Origin: a virus
Virus genome (UHGV): UHGV-0185283
Reading direction: 5' to 3' (one strand)
DNA: 21,276 nt
In this document: positions 1,738 to 20,957 of the stretch, piece by piece
How positions within the stretch are numbered: the stretch's first letter is position 1
Layout of the letters: every line of letters begins with the position of its first letter
Notes under the pieces: model-generated
The model's input: the letters and a program-made list of their open reading frames with translations, nothing else
Databases searched by the model: none
What the model was told of the DNA's origin: nothing
Position numbers and translations under genes: made by a program

Positions 1738-2125
1738 ATGCAAAACCTGAACGTCCTGTGGTATTCCTCTGGCATAATAATTTTCGCGATTAACCAACAA
1801 CCAGACCAGCAAAGACGCCACCACAAGCACAGCAACATCCATCAGGCTTGCCACACCCCATACGTGCGGCTCAAAGCCGCCATGGCATATTAATCCGCTT
1901 GCCATTTTCGAACAGCTGATTGGTTTAGTCCGGTGTTTCCCTGCTTGCACTTAAAAATGAGCGGATGGGAAACTCTCGAAATGGTTCGTCGATATGCTCA
2001 CCTCGCACCTAATCACCTTACCGAACACGCACGGTAAATAGATTCGATCCTGAACCCATCGGTCCCAAATCTGTCCCAATAAAAAATAAGGAAGGTATTA
2101 GTAATGTGTAACTTATTGATTTAAA

Positions 2126-2173
2126 TGGTGCCGATAAGAGGAGTCGAACCTCCGACCTTCGCATTACGAATCT
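2126..2173 (-). other. 3' fragment of a tRNA gene (tRNA-Thr-like, anticodon CGT), probable prophage attR core
   Basis: Minus strand reads ...ATTCGTAATGCGAAGGTCGGAGGTTCGACTCCTCTTATCGGCACCA: T-arm GGTTCGACTCC, 3' acceptor strand and CCA present, but no matching 5' acceptor strand or D-arm upstream, so not a functional tRNA. The fragment's 3' end faces the host side, away from the phage genes. Confidence 0.55.
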
Positions 2174-2337
2174 GTAGCACCAATCATAACTATCTGTTTT
2201 AGCAAGCATTAACCGCATTCACTAAGCTATAGTTGATGGCACAAACAGAAAGTTGATGCATGATGTTGCCATATATATGTCACAAATACGGCACAACGAT
2301 CTTCAAACATATAGCCACACATTCACAGAAGAGCACA

Positions 2338-2365
2338 AAGCCTTGCAATCCAGTGCAAAGCTTTG
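2338..2365 (-). terminator. Hairpin downstream of the acyltransferase gene (possible terminator or RNA-stabilising element)
   Basis: AAAGCCTTGCA-atccag-TGCAAAGCTTT, 11-bp arms with one mismatch, about 30 nt past the acyltransferase stop; no clean U-tract. Confidence 0.3.
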
Positions 2366-2396
2366 TTTGTCTCAGTTTTGCTTCACTTCCTAGGCT

Positions 2397-3521
2397 CTAC
2401 TTTAGTCGCAATTTTTCGATCAGCTTTTTCCCTATGATGACGCTTGGTTTCTCTATATAATTAAACATGATTAGTGAAAGAAAGTATGCAGACATAAGAT
2501 CAGTTAGGAACTTTGCCCATCCTGGATTTTTAGGATACCACGGTATATCCGAACCATATTTTGCAAAAAATAATCCGACAGGAATATGTATTAGATAAAT
2601 AGAGTAAGACAGATCACCAAGATGGCAAAGAAATCTAGGAAAACCGATATCATGCCGACTCTCTATAATAACAAGGCCAACAAAAAGAAATGAAGCAATC
2701 ATCCCCCCATTCATAACACCGTGACCTGACTTATACTGAGTCAACAATGCTGACAATGAATAGATGACAAAAGAAACAGCAATTATTCCAATTGTATTTT
2801 TTTTGTAACTATCTTTTCTTATTGCAATATACGCTTCTGCAAGCAAAACACCTATAATAAAATCAAACACTATAGGGTTGATTATAAATTTAGCGTGGTC
2901 TATTAATCTTTTTGTTTCACCTACTGAAACAGTATAGGGGTCAAGAGTTATTACTCCAGAGAAAATCAACTGCCCAAAAATAACAACAGATGTTATGGTA
3001 ACTACAGTTAAAAGTGCTCTATACTTATGACTTACCATTAGACACATCATAAATACAAAGTAAAAATAAACCTCATATATCAATGTCCAGGAGGGATACA
3101 ATAACCCATAGCCATAAAACGGGCCTTGCTGACTCATATCAGAAGTTATAAACAGGTATGATTTCAAGATATCTTTCCAGTCAAACCATGTTTGAGGGAA
3201 TGACATTATTGAGAAGTCAAAAAATACACCCATCAGCAATAAAGATAATGCAATTAAATATACTGGGTAAATCCTGAACAATCTTTTTATAAAGAAAGCA
3301 ATAGGCGTATTTTCAATTCTATTTTTAGTTGAATAAACAATGATAAATCCACTAATTATAAAAAATAAATCTACGCCAAAAGCGCCATTCATGAAGAGGA
3401 GATCACCAAGATTTGCCTGAGCATACACTCCATTCAGGCTGGTACGGTAGTGGAAACCAACCACCATAAGAGCCGCAATGCCTCGCATAACCTGAATGGA
3501 GTTTAGTTTTAGTTGAGCCAT
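2397..3521 (-). CDS. Integral-membrane acyltransferase, acyltransferase-3 (OafA/Oac-like) family; putative O-antigen acetyltransferase for lysogenic conversion
   Basis: 374-aa polytopic hydrophobic protein; N-terminus MAQLKLNSIQVMRGIAALMVVGFHY is typical of the acyltransferase-3 family; no C-terminal SGNH domain; very AT-rich; sits tailspike-proximal at the prophage end as oac does in Sf6. Confidence 0.75.
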   Translation of the reverse strand: MAQLKLNSIQVMRGIAALMVVGFHYRTSLNGVYAQANLGDLLFMNGAFGVDLFFIISGFIIVYSTKNRIENTPIAFFIKRLFRIYPVYLIALSLLLMGVFFDFSIMSFPQTWFDWKDILKSYLFITSDMSQQGPFYGYGLLYPSWTLIYEVYFYFVFMMCLMVSHKYRALLTVVTITSVVIFGQLIFSGVITLDPYTVSVGETKRLIDHAKFIINPIVFDFIIGVLLAEAYIAIRKDSYKKNTIGIIAVSFVIYSLSALLTQYKSGHGVMNGGMIASFLFVGLVIIESRHDIGFPRFLCHLGDLSYSIYLIHIPVGLFFAKYGSDIPWYPKNPGWAKFLTDLMSAYFLSLIMFNYIEKPSVIIGKKLIEKLRLK

Positions 3522-3550
3522 TTTCGTCTAGTTCATCAGTTTTTTCAGCA

Positions 3551-3578
3551 AATATAACACACATCAAAACTGAATCAA
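3551..3578 (-). promoter_or_regulatory. Candidate sigma70 promoter for the acyltransferase gene
   Basis: Minus strand TTGATT (-35), 16-nt spacer, TGT-TATATT (extended -10), about 30 nt upstream of the ATG at 3521, in the 102-bp gap after the tailspike stop. Confidence 0.3.
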
Positions 3579-3623
3579 TAGCATTGACATTATAAAAATG
3601 GCTGCATTTTTATGATTAATACA

Positions 3624-5933
3624 CTAAATAGCAGCAATTATAAAGCATAATAATTCATCATACCTGATGCTATATCTGCTTCCAGATGCAATATATGGTT
3701 GTTTGACTGTTAATGTTCCATGTTCATCTCTTTCTACAATCTCAGGAGATTCATCCCATTCATCATAACAAAACAGCGCGTAAGAATGAGGGTCTAGATT
3801 TTCCGATAAGAATGCATCTCTTACATCTTGAGCAATCACACCAATATGAATCCTTGCATTATTTCCTTTTTTTAACACAGAGTCATTTAACTTATATTTT
3901 TTTAGTAACCGTTTTATTTTTAAAGCCACACGTTTCTCAGCATCATCAAGCCACTCCTCCTGTTGCTTTAAGCATTTGTCAGATGAAACAATAGGTGATA
4001 CGGTGAAATAACTTGAATTTATTCTCCTGCTTGCAGCTCCAAAATCCTGTGTGCCATCAGTACCGGGTGATAAATAACCGCGAGTAGTCATCTCCCATGA
4101 CTGACCGAGTACGTCGGAGTTATTGATCTTCAGGTTATTAAAAGAAAGATTGGCAGATGCACCTGCGCCATCATAAGCAATAAGATTCGAACTTATCGAT
4201 GCAGCTATAAAGTTAACCCCGGTATCATAAGAGAATCTGTATTCCGGCCCAGATGCAAGCTGCGGATTACCTGCCCTTAACTCATGAAAGTTTTCCCTGA
4301 TACCGAACGCGGTGATGTTCGACTCTAACCCACCTGTTATTGCACGTTCTGACAATTTCGTTGGAGCATACGATCCTCCTAACGTTATAAGATCATTATC
4401 TGATTCAAACACGGAATAACAAGCTGCTTGATATACATGTTGAGTACCAGCATTAGGTTTGTAGTTGGTGTTGTTTTTTATCACACCACCTTCAATTACA
4501 GTAGCCTGTATAAACTTCCCTGCCTTTAAACCATAGCAGATGTTGTTTTCTATTTTTAACCCTGAAATACCAGATACACATATGAAATGGTTTGCTGGAT
4601 TTGTGGCCACGTTATTTGTGATAGTAACAATAGGTACGTATCCGCGCCCCTCATAGTCTTTGTTATACAGCAAAGAATACGGAGTACCAAGGCAATCATT
4701 GACTTTATTACTATCAATAAGCCGGTTTCCGCCACCGGTACCAAGACCAAAAAGAATACCACTATTCACACTTCCATCATGTGTTGTGTTAATTATATCT
4801 CCCGCAGATGATTCAACCCCATTATAGGAAACGTTAGTATAACAATCACGGATTACTATATTAAACATTGCGCTATAAACGTTCATGTTTAGCGCATTAA
4901 ATCGTGCGTTAGTACTGGTTACGCTATCGAATAACGCATCACGGTTGTTGGCGTTACGAGAGAACCAGTATACTTGCTCACCTTCAAATCCGTCTATGTG
5001 AACGCCTTTAACTGTAAAGCGAGAGCAGTTCCATGCAGCTATACCCTTCCGGTTTACCTGGTTAACCAGATCGCTATTGTTTGGAGTTCCTGACCAGTAT
5101 CCTTGTATTCTACCATTACCAGTTACTGAGTAGCAGAATCCATCGTTGCCTGCGAATACAACACCGCCGAACTCGATAAATCCTCGTTCATCCCCAGACT
5201 GCGTTCCAGCGGCAGTGTTAGGCCATCCTGATTTTGCAGGTGCAGGCACCATTCCAGTGCATTCAACCAATCCGTTAACAATCCAATGGACGTTATTTAC
5301 TCCGTATGCAGTGAATCGACCATTGGATTTAATGACTCCACCATTCTCTACGAGAATAATCCTGTCTCCCGGGATTGTGATATCAACATTACCGATGATT
5401 TCAATCGTTGTTCCAGATGGAATTCTTACACTACCTGAATTCACCGCAGCCTGAAATGTTTGTGCGTCGGTGTATCCTGGCTCTCTGAACTCTTCGATAG
5501 TTCTTATTGTAGTGTGTAGGAATTGGGTTAAATCGTCATAACCAGGGTATCCTATATAATCTGCCCCATTGCCAGAAGAAAGTCTCCGTTCTAACTGATC
5601 AGGGTCATACTTCAGCACGTTTGGGAAATAGAACTGCTGCACCCCATAAGCATCGTAAACAGCCATCGAATGACCTTGCACGGTAACGAATTTGGCAATC
5701 TGTCCGTTATATACAGGATATCCAGCAGCGTTAATGATGATTGGCTGCGAAACAGGAACGTGAGAGCCGTCTTCGTTCTCCACATAAACCTGAATCTGGT
5801 TTTCAGGATTTACAGGGTCAGTATCAATTTTACCGATATAAATTTTGCCATTGGCTACAGCTTTAAAAGAACGCGCCATAGTGAAGAGTTGCGAAGGCAT
5901 GCTTACCACAACATTTGCGGTGATATCTGACAT
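3624..5933 (-). CDS. Tailspike protein: P22 gp9-like N-terminal head-binding domain, divergent central beta-helix-type receptor-binding domain, C-terminal intramolecular-chaperone (peptidase S74-like) domain
   Basis: Residues 1-100 from [13 protein letters not shown]...NVLKYDPDQ are near-identical to the remembered P22 tailspike N-terminus. The central region is Gly/Asn/Ser/Thr-rich and does not resemble P22 endorhamnosidase. The C-terminal ~120 aa ([20 protein letters not shown]...[14 protein letters not shown]) resemble autocleaving chaperone domains. Start placed at the internal Met matching P22, with GGAG 7 nt upstream. Confidence 0.85.
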
Positions 5934-6054
5934 TTCATTGCTCCAGACGAATGATATGATGCAACCATGATGTGATTGCATACCGAAATGGTACTATTGA
6001 GTATTTATCCAGTAGGTTACGATGCCATTCCACCCAACTGGTGAGGCATCAAGG

Positions 6055-6315
6055 ATGTACAGCAAATACGACGAGGCGCAGTTTCACTTGAGACTTCCGC
6101 ATGAACTCCACGCGAAAATTAAGCAGCGTGCGAAGATGAATAACAGGTCGCTGAACTCAGAGATAATTGCAGCGATTGAAGAATCATTGGCTAAACAAAG
6201 CTCTGCATCAGTTTACATTGACGATGCAGAGCGTATGGCAGAACAACAATCTGATATGGTTAAGAAAATTGTCTTTGATACGCTCAAAGAGCTATATAAA
6301 AAAGACAGCAGCTAA
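6055..6315 (+). CDS. mnt: Mnt-like ribbon-helix-helix (Arc/MetJ family) repressor
   Basis: C-terminal two-thirds aligns with remembered P22 Mnt (NNRSLNSEII..., AERMAEQQSDMVKKIVFDTLKELYKK versus AERLADEQSELVKKMVFDTLKDLYKK); the N-terminal beta-strand residues differ. Divergent from the tailspike; start chosen at MYSKYDE with GAGG upstream (ORF-track start 6022 is an alternative). Confidence 0.7.
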   Translation: MYSKYDEAQFHLRLPHELHAKIKQRAKMNNRSLNSEIIAAIEESLAKQSSASVYIDDAERMAEQQSDMVKKIVFDTLKELYKKDSS

Positions 6316-6335: not shown

Positions 6336-6413
6336 ATGCAAAGAGATATGCTGAATATTGCGTTCTACATATTTGGTTTTTGCACGTTCCTGGTGTTTGC
6401 GAAGCTATTCTGA
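6336..6413 (+). CDS. Hypothetical 25-aa hydrophobic peptide downstream of mnt
   Basis: GGAGG 4 nt upstream of ATG; MQRDMLNIAFYIFGFCTFLVFAKLF has one predicted transmembrane helix; its 3' end overlaps the gp16-like gene on the opposite strand. Below the 60-aa ORF-track cutoff. Confidence 0.3.
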   Translation: MQRDMLNIAFYIFGFCTFLVFAKLF

Positions 6414-8402
6414 CAACGCATCAGACTTGGCACCCTGAGTCAGGGCGTTAATGGCCTTTTGCGCCTGCTGCATGGCTTTCTCAAACGCTGTTGATCCGCG
6501 TGGGGTGTTTGCCATTCGGAGCATTGCATTTCTGAATGGTTCGCTCTCATAGGCGCGAGTAAGAAGTCCGTAGCTTACTGCTGCGCCAGTTGTCGCCGGG
6601 TTCATTGCCGTCCCATACCCGATAATGAACGGGATGGTTTGCTGCCCTGTTGGTGTTGTTACTGCCGCTTTTGCTGCCTGCTGAGTGGACTGAAGGTAAT
6701 TTTTCAATCCTTTCAGATAAGCAGCGTCCTGCCCCTTAAATGTGATGCCAGTCTGGTTTTGCAGGATGTTAAGCTGCCGAAGGAACTGGTCAGGGGATCC
6801 GCCAGATTTCTCCATCGCCTTTCCAATGATGCCATTGCGCATTTGCACCCTGCCAACACGACCAACTGAGTTATACAGCGTCTTAATTTCCGATTTGTTC
6901 TTGCTGAATAGCATGTTGTTGACAACTTCCGGCGTCAGGTCGCCTTTCATGAGAACATTCTTCAGCCTGGTATTCTTTAGTTTCGCCGCTTCGTCAGCGT
7001 AGACGGCATTGGCCTGCTGATATTTACGGAGAGTATCGTTGCCAAGATTCTGACCAATGGCACCATTGATATCGTCGGTCATCGCCTTGTAAACGCGCTG
7101 AATGGCAGCATCGGAACGGTTTGGTAACACTGGTCGCTCACCCTTCACGTCCATTCTGAACTGACTGCGCAGGTCGCTTAATTGCTTCAAATCCAGATTT
7201 ACCGGACCATCAGGGCCAGCATTGCGAACAAGCTCATCACGATATGACTGAAGTTTTGAAATTGTCTCGTTATCAGCCACCTTACCAAGCTTCTGCAGGT
7301 TAGATATTTCTGTATCAATCTGCTGAATTGCTCGCGCAGGCTGAATGTTTACTCCAGCCATAGCATTCTGAACCTGCTCCAGTCGATTACCGGCGGCACG
7401 ACGAATTCCTGATGTTTTCGCTTTAAGGCTGTCAATAACAACCGCTGGATCATACTCCCCGAATTTATCAGCAAATCTCTGCACCAACTGGCTTCTCGCT
7501 TCCTGTTGCGTTGCTCTCATTCCGCTTGTTCCAGCCAGAGGGATATTTTCTGCTGTAGTCTGCGCCATTTTTCCGACGCGGGAAGTAGGTTGTAACAGGT
7601 CTGTGGTGTGCAGAGGCACTCCTTCACGCTCTGCAAATCTGATAGCCTGCTGCGCTTCTGGCGCAATAGCACCACGAACGCCACGATAAGCAGCACCTAA
7701 TCCACGTCCAGCAGCGTTAATAGCGCCGCCTGCCAGAACTCCAACACCTAAATCGGTAGCGAGTGCTTCCGCATCATCTTTCGCACTATTTGCAGCAAGT
7801 GATCCAACTGCGTTTTCTGCTAGAAGGCGAGTTGCCCCATGAGCAATTCGACCAGCAAGTGTTGGTGCCTGTACCGCCGCTCTCTCAACGCCAGCAGGAG
7901 TGAGGTAAGGCAATGCTTCAGCAAATACCCTTCCCTCTGTCGTTTGTGGAGTCAGCGCACCTTGCTGAAGGCCAAAGTCCTGCTCTAATCCCTGCGTTGT
8001 TACTCGTGGTGCTGGTTGATATGTACCATCGCCAATGCCGAGTTTACCGCCAGCCCAAGCCGCCGCGCTTGTTACAGCATCGGCAACTGATGCAGGTATG
8101 TTTGCCACGTTCACGCCAGCCTGCACCAGTCCGCGACCAGTTTCTTTCACGGCTTCACCAAGATCAGACATAAATCCACTTTGCTGTGGTTGTTGCTGTG
8201 CTACTGGTTGTTGTGTCTCCACTGGATGCACAGATGGCAATGGATAGGCAGCATAGAAAGCTTGCTTAGCCTGCTCTGCATTTTCTCCGGCTTTCGGGGC
8301 CACGACTTCATTGAAGTATTGCTCCTGAGCCTGCGCTTTTTGTTCTGGTGCTAACGCCTGATACTGTGGAGAGGCGATAACATCTTTCCATGCTTTAGCC
8401 AT
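6405..8402 (-). CDS. Ejection (E) protein, P22 gp16-like
   Basis: 665-aa Ala/Gly/Gln-rich protein in the last position of the gp7-gp20-gp16 block; start overlaps the upstream stop (ATGA). Confidence 0.65.
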   Translation of the reverse strand: MAKAWKDVIASPQYQALAPEQKAQAQEQYFNEVVAPKAGENAEQAKQAFYAAYPLPSVHPVETQQPVAQQQPQQSGFMSDLGEAVKETGRGLVQAGVNVANIPASVADAVTSAAAWAGGKLGIGDGTYQPAPRVTTQGLEQDFGLQQGALTPQTTEGRVFAEALPYLTPAGVERAAVQAPTLAGRIAHGATRLLAENAVGSLAANSAKDDAEALATDLGVGVLAGGAINAAGRGLGAAYRGVRGAIAPEAQQAIRFAEREGVPLHTTDLLQPTSRVGKMAQTTAENIPLAGTSGMRATQQEARSQLVQRFADKFGEYDPAVVIDSLKAKTSGIRRAAGNRLEQVQNAMAGVNIQPARAIQQIDTEISNLQKLGKVADNETISKLQSYRDELVRNAGPDGPVNLDLKQLSDLRSQFRMDVKGERPVLPNRSDAAIQRVYKAMTDDINGAIGQNLGNDTLRKYQQANAVYADEAAKLKNTRLKNVLMKGDLTPEVVNNMLFSKNKSEIKTLYNSVGRVGRVQMRNGIIGKAMEKSGGSPDQFLRQLNILQNQTGITFKGQDAAYLKGLKNYLQSTQQAAKAAVTTPTGQQTIPFIIGYGTAMNPATTGAAVSYGLLTRAYESEPFRNAMLRMANTPRGSTAFEKAMQQAQKAINALTQGAKSDALSE

Positions 8403-20435: not shown

Positions 20436-20957
20436 TCAGCACGCGATATCGAGAGTCAACTGCAGTTGCTCGCGCCAGTACTCAACATTTGCTTCAATAA
20501 CCGGCTTATCCCATCGCCAGCGAGCCATCTCTCTTGCCCCATTGCTGGCTTTTGATTTCCGGTCATCGCGAATGCGACATGCTTGCTCATATTTCTGCTG
20601 CTCAGTCAGTTCACCGCGAAGCAGACTATCAATGTGCAGGTCGCACCACACAGCAAAACGAGCATCACACCAACGGGCAAATGCAACTGAAAGTTTTGGA
20701 TGTAGCCACGTACCACCACCCCTGTCCTTTCGTGCCTTGCTGGTTTTTACATACCTCGATTGTGAGGGATGTAAAATTTGAGATTCTTTCCCGGTCAACG
20801 CTTCGTCTAAAGCACGAACGTATTCAAGCGTTTCTGCCAAACGCATCCAGTTATCAATGCGTTTCCCAAATCTCTCAGCAACACCTGTGACGTTGATCCA
20901 ACCATCAGTGTTGAAACTGACAATTTCACCTTTGTAATTAAGTGGCACGATATTCAT
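20436..20957 (-). CDS. KilA-N domain-containing protein
   Basis: 173 aa; N-terminal ~100 residues (MNIVPLNYKGEIVSFNTDGWINVTGVAERFGKRIDNWMRL...GGTWLHPKLSVAFARWCDARFAVWCDLHIDSL) look like a KilA-N/APSES-type DNA-binding domain; lies between the lysis genes and terminase. Confidence 0.6.
   Translation of the reverse strand: MNIVPLNYKGEIVSFNTDGWINVTGVAERFGKRIDNWMRLAETLEYVRALDEALTGKESQILHPSQSRYVKTSKARKDRGGGTWLHPKLSVAFARWCDARFAVWCDLHIDSLLRGELTEQQKYEQACRIRDDRKSKASNGAREMARWRWDKPVIEANVEYWREQLQLTLDIAC

Follow-up and report, generated by a model that had tools for sequence, protein, structure and literature searches.

The gene that lies next to the attachment end of a P22-like prophage of E. coli is probably an accessory ('moron') gene, encoding a stand-alone acyltransferase-3 (AT3) protein of the inner membrane that masks the receptor of the adjacent tailspike. 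The prophage was analysed as a 21,276-nt stretch of virus genome UHGV-0185283 (the window), and the features discussed are collected in the table. The gene is of an ordinary kind, a further prophage-borne surface-glycan acyltransferase, most likely one that acetylates the sugar bound by its own tailspike, and as it stands the finding is useful mainly for correct annotation.

Table. Positions of the features in the window, and of motifs and helices in the AT3 protein
Feature	Position	Strand	Description
tRNA 3' fragment (att core at prophage end)	2126..2171	−	46 nt, anticodon loop to CCA, read from sequence
Conserved att-proximal arm, integration module	2200..2380		181 bp
Hairpin	2335..2366	−	13-bp stem, 31 nt past AT3 stop; terminator-like, poor T tail
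AT3 acyltransferase CDS	2397..3521	−	374 aa, ATG start
Co-inherited segment	2437..5567	−	tailspike codons ~123–769, gap and AT3 codons 1–361; GC 0.382
A8 homopolymer	2797..2804	−	AT3 codons 240–242, TAC AAA AAA AAT
Gap, tailspike stop to AT3 start	3522..3623	−	102 nt, GC 0.275; weak A/T hairpin 3613–3592
Sigma-70 promoter-like site	3551..3578	−	−35 TTGATT 3578–3573, 16-nt spacer, TG 3559–3558, TATATT 3556–3551
Tailspike gene	3624..5933	−	P22-type; 769 aa from M17 of listed ORF; directly upstream of AT3
AT3 protein motifs	R13-X10-H24; FFIISG 53–58; R80-L-F-R83; SYSIYLIH 305–312
AT3 model long helices	7–24, 46–64, 73–100, 144–163, 168–187, 218–235, 241–261, 272–289, 305–325, 335–373

Family, motifs and fold of the protein

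A first-pass annotation of this region had described a 374-aa membrane acyltransferase and proposed a homology or profile search for the acyltransferase-3 signature. The signature is clearly present. Pfam Acyl_transf_3 (PF01757) matched residues 7–351 over profile positions 2–323 of 326, at E 3.7e-28 and with 99 bits against a cut-off of 31, and PHROG 3333 ('O-acetyltransferase') matched the protein over its full length (E 2.1e-75); these matches, the motifs and a 10-helix model bear out the description. The protein belongs to the AT3-only subclass, with one Pfam domain in its 374 aa and no fused SGNH or other extracytoplasmic domain.

The motif residues are intact, and they are invariant across 26–27 homologues of 32–90% identity. 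R13 and H24 lie exactly 10 residues apart and do not vary in an alignment of 27 sequences, Sf6 Oac among them, while R80 and R83, which make up an RXXR motif after the second helix, are invariant in the aligned homologues and line up with KRARRIFP of Oac. Both R/K-X10-H and RXXR are named as essential in a review of AT3 proteins, and RXXR is essential in Sf6 Oac (PMC9558356). Some public gene calls start at M19, leaving out the essential R13.

The AlphaFold model, whose underlying alignment was without Sf6 Oac, had a pLDDT of 89.7 and a pTM of 0.90 and contained 10 long helices, in line with the approximately 10 looked for; its C-terminal end is a transmembrane plus an amphipathic helix. The best solved-structure matches of the model were to human HGSNAT (8vli, 8vlg and others), with probability 1.0, a TM-score of 0.38–0.45 and an identity of 12–14%. 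HGSNAT is a transmembrane enzyme that transfers acetyl from acetyl-CoA on one side of the membrane to a sugar on the other, and the match to its acetyl-CoA-bound form is suggestive of acyl-CoA-dependent sugar acylation by the AT3 protein, although HGSNAT belongs to the eukaryotic lysosome and has additional domains. A sequence search of solved structures with the AT3 protein gave no match, and the sole profile match among them, Ninjurin-2 (E 0.008), was rejected as spurious. NCBIfam held no match for either the AT3 protein or the tailspike.

The best relative among 50,697 phage records had 35% identity, and no characterised close relative or orthologue was found in a comparison that covered these records, Sf6 Oac and phiV10 Oac; on this evidence the protein can be placed at family level only. 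Known acceptors of the family further include enterobacterial common antigen, periplasmic glucans and exopolysaccharides, among others, and in some cases the group transferred is succinyl (PMC9558356); family membership therefore settles neither donor nor acceptor.

Insertion, co-inheritance and the attachment site

As the first-pass annotation had stated, the AT3 gene is much more AT-rich than the structural genes: its GC content is 0.345 (GC3 0.31) against a mean of 0.505 (sd 0.012, in 1125-nt windows), giving z = −13.6, and of all 1125-nt stretches in the window the one with the lowest GC begins at 2801. The GC of the tailspike gene is also low (0.413), so that the low-GC block extends beyond the AT3 gene alone. 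The separate acquisition that had been read from this composition is therefore half right. In the sister prophage Z142-1, which occupies the same att site, the AT3 gene is missing and the tailspike stop lies 21 nt from the conserved arm, and relative to Z142-1 the gene is an insertion. It did not move by itself, however, but shares a low-GC, highly mosaic segment of 3.1 kb with the receptor-binding part of the tailspike. Presence or absence among similar phages and deviant base composition, both marks of a moron, were found for the AT3 gene; as regards a promoter and terminator of its own, the promoter match occurs at chance frequency, and the downstream hairpin is part of the shared att arm rather than of the insert.

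The limits of the co-inherited segment were taken from megablast, and the segment is common to epsilon15/phiV10-like prophages of chicken E. coli. What is new here is that it recurs in three prophage settings, namely P22-like prophages inserted at two further sites in the chromosome (99% identity) and epsilon15/phiV10-like prophages (~84–96%). The receptor-binding part and the AT3 gene were found together in P22-like prophages at a thrW-type site (the window), the argW/yfdC site and the dacD site, and in epsilon15/phiV10-like prophages adjoining yfgI. One carrier of the latter kind is a prophage of strain E28, located by its position in the genome, which was induced spontaneously (PMC5454188). 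Identity along the segment is block-wise mosaic: the tailspike is 96% identical to that of Z1323CEC0010 over 653 aa without gaps, and the AT3 protein is 91% identical to the CS6L/E28 allele. Judged by sequence comparison, the receptor-binding part and the AT3 gene have been co-inherited across phage types. More distant AT3 relatives (54%, 37% and 40% identity) also adjoin genes for a tailspike or tail fibre, whose receptor-binding part differs in each case, and in a pairwise test the tailspike beside the 54% relative was not the same as that of the window.

The tailspike itself carries a Pfam Head_binding domain (223.6 bits) and a C-terminal Peptidase_S74 (S74 chaperone) domain; its sequence matches in the PDB are confined to both ends, leaving the receptor-binding part without a solved relative. 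Gene calls for the tailspike in loci L003–L008 are 769–770 aa long.

The dN/dS of the AT3 gene, 0.11 against the E28/CS6L allele, indicates a functional gene under purifying selection, and at least 18 contigs hold copies with 99% identity; the draft assemblies GCA_053187145.1, GCA_958521745.1 and ERZ16008938 are examples of carriers. The allele of Z1323CEC0010 has A7 instead of A8 and is frameshifted, and is annotated as two CDS.

The position of the gene between the tailspike and an att fragment had been correctly recognised. ARAGORN and Rfam scans of the att region found no complete tRNA, so the tRNA there is partial only; the fragment is presumably thrW, which it resembles, and this reading agrees with yagU/ykgJ and CP4-6-type neighbours, the host genes yagU and ykgJ lying beyond it. 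The att-proximal arm is 94–99% identical to att/int-adjacent sequence in HK542, ECP1, mEp213, mEp043, HK75 and SfX and is present in 1,400+ E. coli genomes. Loci L003–L009 match the window to ~2328 and then diverge into a convergent integrase gene. The downstream hairpin (fold −23.3 kcal/mol, z −1.85) sits within the arm, in sequence common to HK542, mEp213 and SfX; it marks the downstream limit of the sequence common to the P22-like copies and also adjoins att/int in lambdoid phages.

Transcription, receptor and competing explanations

The gap after the tailspike had been proposed to hold an extended −10 promoter. The motif is there, with a predicted transcript start at ~3544–3545, and its −10 is invariant in 10 of 10 cassette copies, its −35 being TTGCTT in the CS6L-type copy. 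Sites of this kind are nonetheless no commoner than in shuffled sequence (15 found within 5 kb against 15.9 expected), and the putative promoter is statistically indistinguishable from chance. Conservation of the gap was dropped as promoter evidence, since other mosaic blocks proved just as conserved when compared block by block, and the conservation is therefore no argument for regulation. The hairpin that follows the tailspike stop is weak (fold −4.6 kcal/mol, z −0.67) and was dismissed as a terminator on that account. With only this hairpin between the co-directional tailspike and AT3 genes, read-through of the late operon is an equally plausible source of AT3 transcripts. No recognisable Shine–Dalgarno sequence was seen in the gap, and no GATC site; as there is no GATC upstream of the gene, phase variation of the Dam/OxyR type, as in P22 gtr or oafB, was ruled out.

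By analogy with the AT3 family, R13, R80, R83 and H24 of the first transmembrane helix would bind cytoplasmic acyl-CoA, most likely acetyl-CoA, and the acyl group would pass via the 10-helix bundle to a sugar hydroxyl on the periplasmic side. Of the possible acceptors, the most likely is whichever surface polysaccharide serves the neighbouring tailspike as its substrate for binding and cleavage, the O-antigen or another. Its modification would prevent the same phage or related ones from adsorbing and would alter the serotype. In the lysogen, transcription probably starts at the putative extended −10 promoter; in lytic growth, late-operon read-through is probably a further source, the gene being co-directional with the tailspike and separated from it only by the weak hairpin.

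The first-pass annotation held that the substrate could not be inferred from the sequence. This can be softened: the carriers are strongly enriched in O123/O186, but the link is not exclusive. The cassette was found in 4 of 8 complete genomes with the O123/O186 wzy against 4 of 5,418 others (naive Fisher p = 1.4e-10), half of the complete-genome carriers being O123/O186 strains. The four O123/O186 carriers hold three different tailspike alleles, and identical tailspike and AT3 proteins occur in one O51 strain and one O123/O186 strain. The O-antigen cluster of CS6L differs from that of O123/O186 and its type is unnamed, and no related wzx genes were found in the non-O123 carriers. O51 was ruled out as a second associated serogroup, the cassette being present in 1 of 28 O51 genomes. 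In a preprint, a cluster of prophage tailspikes has been linked to O123, O186 and Salmonella O58 (PMC10370184). The O123 and O186 gene clusters are 98–99.9% identical and without an O-acetyltransferase, and the O-antigen cluster of E28 contains no O-acetyltransferase of the AT3 or hexapeptide-repeat type. In one review table the O123 repeat unit bears an O-acetyl group, in a notation that looks inconsistent (PMC10609480).

These observations lend themselves to a wider reading, which we put forward tentatively and consider rather unlikely: that a receptor-binding part and the AT3 gene matched to it make up a recognise-and-mask unit, exchanged through recombination among unrelated lineages of temperate podophages (P22-like and epsilon15/phiV10-like) and among several att sites, with the AT3 protein as the missing O123/O186 O-acetyltransferase and the A8 tract as its on/off switch. 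The enzyme might then explain the O123 O-acetyl group or the serological split between O123 and O186. If this is true, the co-transfer of a receptor-binding module with a receptor-masking enzyme would be a compact case of host range and superinfection exclusion carried together across phage genera, and the gene would be a concrete candidate, open to testing, for modifying the O-antigen from outside the O123/O186 cluster, relevant to molecular serotyping, which cannot tell the two serogroups apart.

The protein might instead acylate an envelope glycan other than the tailspike receptor: colanic acid, a capsule, enterobacterial common antigen (the target of WecH) or periplasmic glucans (that of the succinyltransferase OpgC), the tailspike merely adjoining the usual insertion spot for accessory genes. 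AT3-only proteins fill all such roles (PMC9558356), several AT3 homologues are labelled 'ExoZ/exopolysaccharide production protein' by their sources, and hosts whose O-antigen clusters are unrelated (O51, O123/O186 and an unnamed type) carry one and the same pair of tailspike and AT3 protein. We nevertheless consider this unlikely, given that the strong O123/O186 enrichment points to the tailspike receptor and that the AT3 gene and receptor-binding part are co-inherited in two types of phage and at no fewer than four chromosomal sites, with distant AT3 variants paired with different receptor-binding parts, a pairing that is expected if both proteins act on the same glycan.

A slightly smaller chance is given to the gene being mainly a late lytic one, transcribed with the tailspike and silent in the lysogen, whose product would mask receptors on the cell as it dies and on the debris it leaves, sparing progeny virions. 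The co-directional arrangement, unlike that of Sf6 oac and phiV10 oac, would suit such a role, as would the weak hairpin between the genes, the chance-level promoter match and the 22-nt gap between tailspike and AT3 gene in the 54% relative, which leaves no room there for a promoter. However, the extended −10 element, with its −10 invariant, is present in all copies compared, and purifying selection has kept the gene intact in prophages, one of which has a broken holin gene; characterised phage AT3 genes at such a position all act in the lysogen (PMC9558356), and lytic and lysogenic expression are not mutually exclusive. That the reading frame is a decaying or inactive remnant without present function is highly improbable: the frameshifted Z1323CEC0010 allele and the lack of an obvious ribosome-binding site would fit, but the window frame is full length with all family-invariant residues kept, and its low dN/dS, its many near-identical copies and the confident structural model all speak against decay. 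Masking of the tailspike's own receptor by the AT3 protein is the explanation that we prefer.

Comparison with known systems

The P22 prophage carries gtrABC, three proteins for O-antigen glucosylation, between tailspike and att, in an orientation opposite to that of the AT3 gene. The genomic niche and the general logic of receptor modification are the same; the chemistry is different and the proteins are unrelated. In the P22-like K1 prophage CUS-3, the O-acetyltransferase NeuO lies beside a tailspike with a C-terminal chaperone domain, the two acting on the same polysaccharide. NeuO is a soluble hexapeptide-repeat acetyltransferase and not an AT3 protein, and is switched on and off through a heptanucleotide repeat, where the window gene has only the A8 tract, with one natural frameshift observed.

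OafB (formerly family II GtrC) of the Salmonella prophage BTP1 acetylates the O-antigen and so protects against the prophage's own tailspike (PMC9558356). OafB and OafA share with the window protein an AT3 domain with R/K-X10-H and RXXR, but they are AT3–SGNH fusions, whereas the window protein is the AT3 domain alone. Expression of oafB is phase-variable via upstream Dam/OxyR signatures (PMC9558356), which have no counterpart in the GATC-free sequence upstream of the window gene.

The phiV10 Oac protein, from an Escherichia phage of the genus Uetakevirus, acetylates the O157 antigen and gives superinfection immunity, the same biological role as is proposed here. Its gene immediately follows the tailspike and precedes the holin genes, a layout shared by the epsilon15-like relatives of the window cassette. 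The pairwise similarity of the two proteins is not significant (E 0.11), and phiV10 oac is in the opposite orientation to the tail fibre gene whereas the window gene is co-directional with the tailspike.

Sf6 Oac, from a Shigella phage, is an AT3-only O-antigen 2-O-acetyltransferase of rhamnose I that blocks Sf6 superinfection. It belongs to the same Pfam family as the window protein and is likewise stand-alone, without an SGNH domain, and the R..H of the first transmembrane helix, FFxISG and RxxR motifs of the two align. Identity is 31% over the N-terminal 132 aa (E 2e-5), about a third of its length, and the remainder does not align significantly, so Sf6 Oac (333 aa against 374 aa here) is a family relative and not an orthologue. 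Sf6 had also been cited in the first pass for carrying oac in the equivalent place, correctly so from the layout of that phage: in both P22-like phages the gene comes directly after the tailspike and adjoins the integration module. Sf6 oac is annotated with its own promoter, where the window gene has a promoter-like site, and it lies on the opposite strand, convergent with its tailspike, whereas the window gene is co-directional. While its orientation differs from that of both Sf6 oac and phiV10 oac, the AT3 gene fits their common layout, that of an acyltransferase gene of a temperate phage adjoining the tailspike and att/int.

The att end of the prophage

The window covers the end of an E. 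coli P22-like prophage where the late genes lie, with Pfam matches to terminase, P22 portal, P22 coat, gp10, gp7, gp20 and a Mnt-type repressor. The first 2.1 kb on the left belong to the E. coli chromosome, carry ykgJ and yagU and are 98–99% identical to many genomes. Towards the terminase end, 20436–20957 (minus strand) encodes a protein with a KilA-N domain. The acyltransferase-3 (AT3) gene has the tailspike on one side and the hairpin, arm and tRNA fragment of the att end on the other, as the first-pass annotation had it.

Features of the tailspike-to-att region (window coordinates)
Feature	Coordinates	Strand	Remarks
Integrase C-terminal remnant	1894–2037	+	~30–40 aa; converges on the tRNA 3′ fragment
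tRNA 3′ fragment	2171–2126	−	final 46 nt of the tRNA
att-proximal arm	2200–2380		181 bp
Hairpin, 13-bp stem	2366–2335		downstream of the AT3 gene, inside the arm
AT3 ORF	2397–3521	−	374 aa; directly downstream of the tailspike gene
Tailspike gene	3624–5933	−	769 aa; P22-type
Mnt/Arc-type repressor gene	6022–6315	+	between gp16 and the tailspike

The arm was 94–99% identical to att/int-adjacent sequence of the lambdoid siphophages HK542, ECP1, mEp213, mEp043 and HK75 and of SfX, and occurred at this identity in more than 1,400 E. coli genomes, indicating one integration-module boundary in P22-like and lambda-like phages. In argW-type P22-like prophages, the same 13-bp-stem hairpin lies between convergent AT3 and integrase genes. 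Neither ARAGORN nor Rfam detected a full tRNA at the att end, and the integrase remnant beside yagU and ykgJ seems to have been left behind by an element that used this att site earlier. The Mnt/Arc-type gene stands singly, no arc or ant partner having been noticed among the larger ORFs. Related prophages have Arc, Ant/Bro or a 161-aa ORF in its position, which marks immI as a variable region; the best PHROG label of this gene, 'partition protein ATPase', seems to be misapplied.

The AT3 protein

The proposed identity as a membrane acyltransferase was supported by profile, motif and predicted fold. The protein scored 99 bits against Pfam Acyl_transf_3 (PF01757; cut-off 31 bits), covering nearly the whole profile, and matched PHROG 3333 'O-acetyltransferase' at 2e-75. 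Both motifs reviewed as essential in AT3 proteins, R/K-X10-H and RXXR (PMC9558356), were found, as R13-X10-H24 and R80-x-x-R83. These were invariant, with FFxISG (53–58), W145, E150, Y154 and S305, in an alignment of 26–27 homologues of 32–90% identity. A confident AlphaFold model built on the homologue alignment (pLDDT 89.7, pTM 0.90) contained ten long helices. No bacterial AT3 structure was matched by sequence or by Foldseek against the PDB, where the best structural matches were to human HGSNAT (probability 1.0, TM-score 0.38–0.45), a transmembrane acetyl-CoA-dependent acetyltransferase. The gene is under purifying selection, with a dN/dS of 0.11 against the allele of E28 and CS6L.

Public gene calls of the 99%-identical copies start at M19 (356 aa; window 3467–3521, corresponding to 7947–8000 in the P22-like locus L003). 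With this start the protein would lose R13 and with it the essential R-X10-H motif. The ATG further upstream (M1) is conserved and is favoured by a Pfam profile that begins at residue 7; the M19 start is therefore probably a start-codon mis-annotation. The mechanical tailspike ORF runs 16 codons too far upstream (5934–5981, minus strand), the true CDS being 3624–5933 (769 aa), in agreement with the gene calls of related loci.

A shared tailspike–acyltransferase segment

The AT richness noted from the sequence was pronounced: the AT3 ORF has a GC of 0.345 and a GC3 of 0.31, against 0.505 ± 0.012 in structural-gene windows of equal size (z = −13.6), and the lowest-GC stretch of the window overlaps it. 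In strain Z142-1, the P22-like prophage that occupies this att site carries no acyltransferase, and just 21 nt separate its tailspike stop from the conserved arm, so that about 1.24 kb (2381–3623) behaves as an inserted accessory unit. The suggested separate acquisition thus held for insertion, but the gene did not travel alone, as the receptor-binding part of the tailspike is co-inherited with it.

This cassette (2437–5567; tailspike codons ~123–769, the gap and AT3 codons 1–361) was found again in 8 complete chicken E. coli genomes within another prophage type, which adjoins yfgI and has an epsilon15/phiV10-like layout of tail fibre, AT3, two holins, GH19 endolysin and a DUF2514 protein in the Rz-like spanin position of phiV10. 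The tailspike was 96% identical to that of Z1323CEC0010 over 653 aa without gaps, with identity breaking exactly at the junction of head-binding domain and receptor-binding part. The AT3 protein was 91% identical to the allele common to E28, CS6L, TB4019 and Z1323CEC0014. The E28 (DSM 103246) pair (record 1454707–1458540) lies in region P3 (1419048–1460607), a spontaneously induced prophage whose excision has been reported (PMC5454188), so a live phage with a 91% AT3 relative is available in a culture-collection strain. Copies of the pair at 99% identity occur in P22-like prophages at two further sites, one adjoining an IntS-type integrase, yfdC and mlaA, the other dacD and sbmC.

The segment is a patchwork in which 100-nt blocks at 95–100% identity alternate with blocks at 55–75%. 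The receptor-binding alleles are sharply mosaic (window 3700–5500 against the loci of Z1323CEC0010, Z1323CEC0014, TB4019 and E28 and one further locus), 97–100% blocks adjoining 55–75% blocks (100 nt), a pattern implying that recombination within this part of the tailspike is frequent. The tailspike C-terminus is a Peptidase_S74 intramolecular chaperone domain (3624–4130, residues ~610–769) with PDB sequence matches to 3gw6 (endosialidase chaperone) and other tail fibres; by sequence, no solved relative was found for residues ~117–610, which form the central part. More distant AT3 relatives likewise adjoin tailspike or tail-fibre genes: at 54% in epsilon15-like prophages, with an unrelated receptor-binding part, at 40% beside an S74 tail fibre, and at 37% in P22-like prophages integrated at argW. 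That the two are co-inherited repeatedly argues, indirectly but better than anything else at hand, that enzyme and tailspike may act on the same glycan.

Expression, candidate acceptor and known systems

The extended −10 promoter proposed for the gap (3522–3623) is present as a motif, TTGATT-16-TGtTATATT at 3578–3551, but promoter-like sites in the region were no commoner than in shuffled sequence (15 against 15.9). The −10 was invariant in all 10 copies aligned and the −35 had one change in the CS6L type; conservation of the gap was no better than that of other mosaic blocks. No clear ribosome-binding site was seen upstream of the gene. Since tailspike and AT3 gene point the same way with just a weak hairpin (−4.6 kcal/mol, z −0.67) in the gap, late-operon read-through appears likely as well. 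A Dam/OxyR switch is known for gtr and oafB; none is expected here, as the upstream region lacks GATC sites. An A8 tract occupies codons 240–242 (2797–2804, minus strand), and the Z1323CEC0010 allele has A7 at exactly this position (~6340–6350 of its locus), splitting the gene into two annotated CDS. This is a frameshift by natural slippage, and the tract could serve as an on/off switch; a single observed event is too little to establish phase variation.

The O-antigen cluster of E28 is annotated 'O123/O186 family'. The O123/O186 wzy was present at at least 99% in 8 of 5,426 complete genomes, four of which carry the cassette (naive Fisher p = 1.4e-10, relatedness ignored); the other four cassette carriers lacked that wzy and wzx. 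Three different tailspike alleles among the four O123/O186 carriers argue against a single clonal event. The O123 and O186 clusters are 98–99.9% identical and cross-react (PMC4732683), a review table shows the O123 unit as O-acetylated (PMC10609480), and a preprint ties a prophage tailspike cluster, not necessarily this one, to O123, O186 and Salmonella O58 (PMC10370184). No O-acetyltransferase of AT3 or hexapeptide-repeat type was found in the E28 cluster. The link is not exclusive, since CS6L has a cluster of another, unnamed type and Z1323CEC0014 is O51. The latter and TB4019 (O123/O186) carry identical tailspike (WP_243044454.1) and AT3 (WP_080030029.1) proteins in hosts with unrelated O-antigen clusters, which would fit either a change of O-antigen in an existing lysogen or a receptor other than O-antigen; the cassette occurs in only 1 of 28 O51 genomes, and the holin gene of the O51 copy has an internal stop. 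The O123/O186 O-antigen is thus a candidate acceptor, not a conclusion.

The original observation was confirmed and its interpretation supported in the main lines, with a putative promoter and a predicted phenotype; the cassette behaviour, co-directional layout and O123/O186 lead add modest interest. Having no SGNH domain, the protein is 'AT3-only' like Sf6 Oac. Judged by sequence, it belongs to the AT3 family and to this subclass but is an orthologue of no characterised enzyme: no protein of the phage collection exceeds 35% identity to it, identity to Sf6 Oac is 31% over 132 aa only, and similarity to phiV10 Oac is not significant. In predicted function and in position, the gene is of the same prophage-gene type as oac of Sf6 and phiV10, whereas those genes are antisense to the tailspike gene and this one is co-directional with it.
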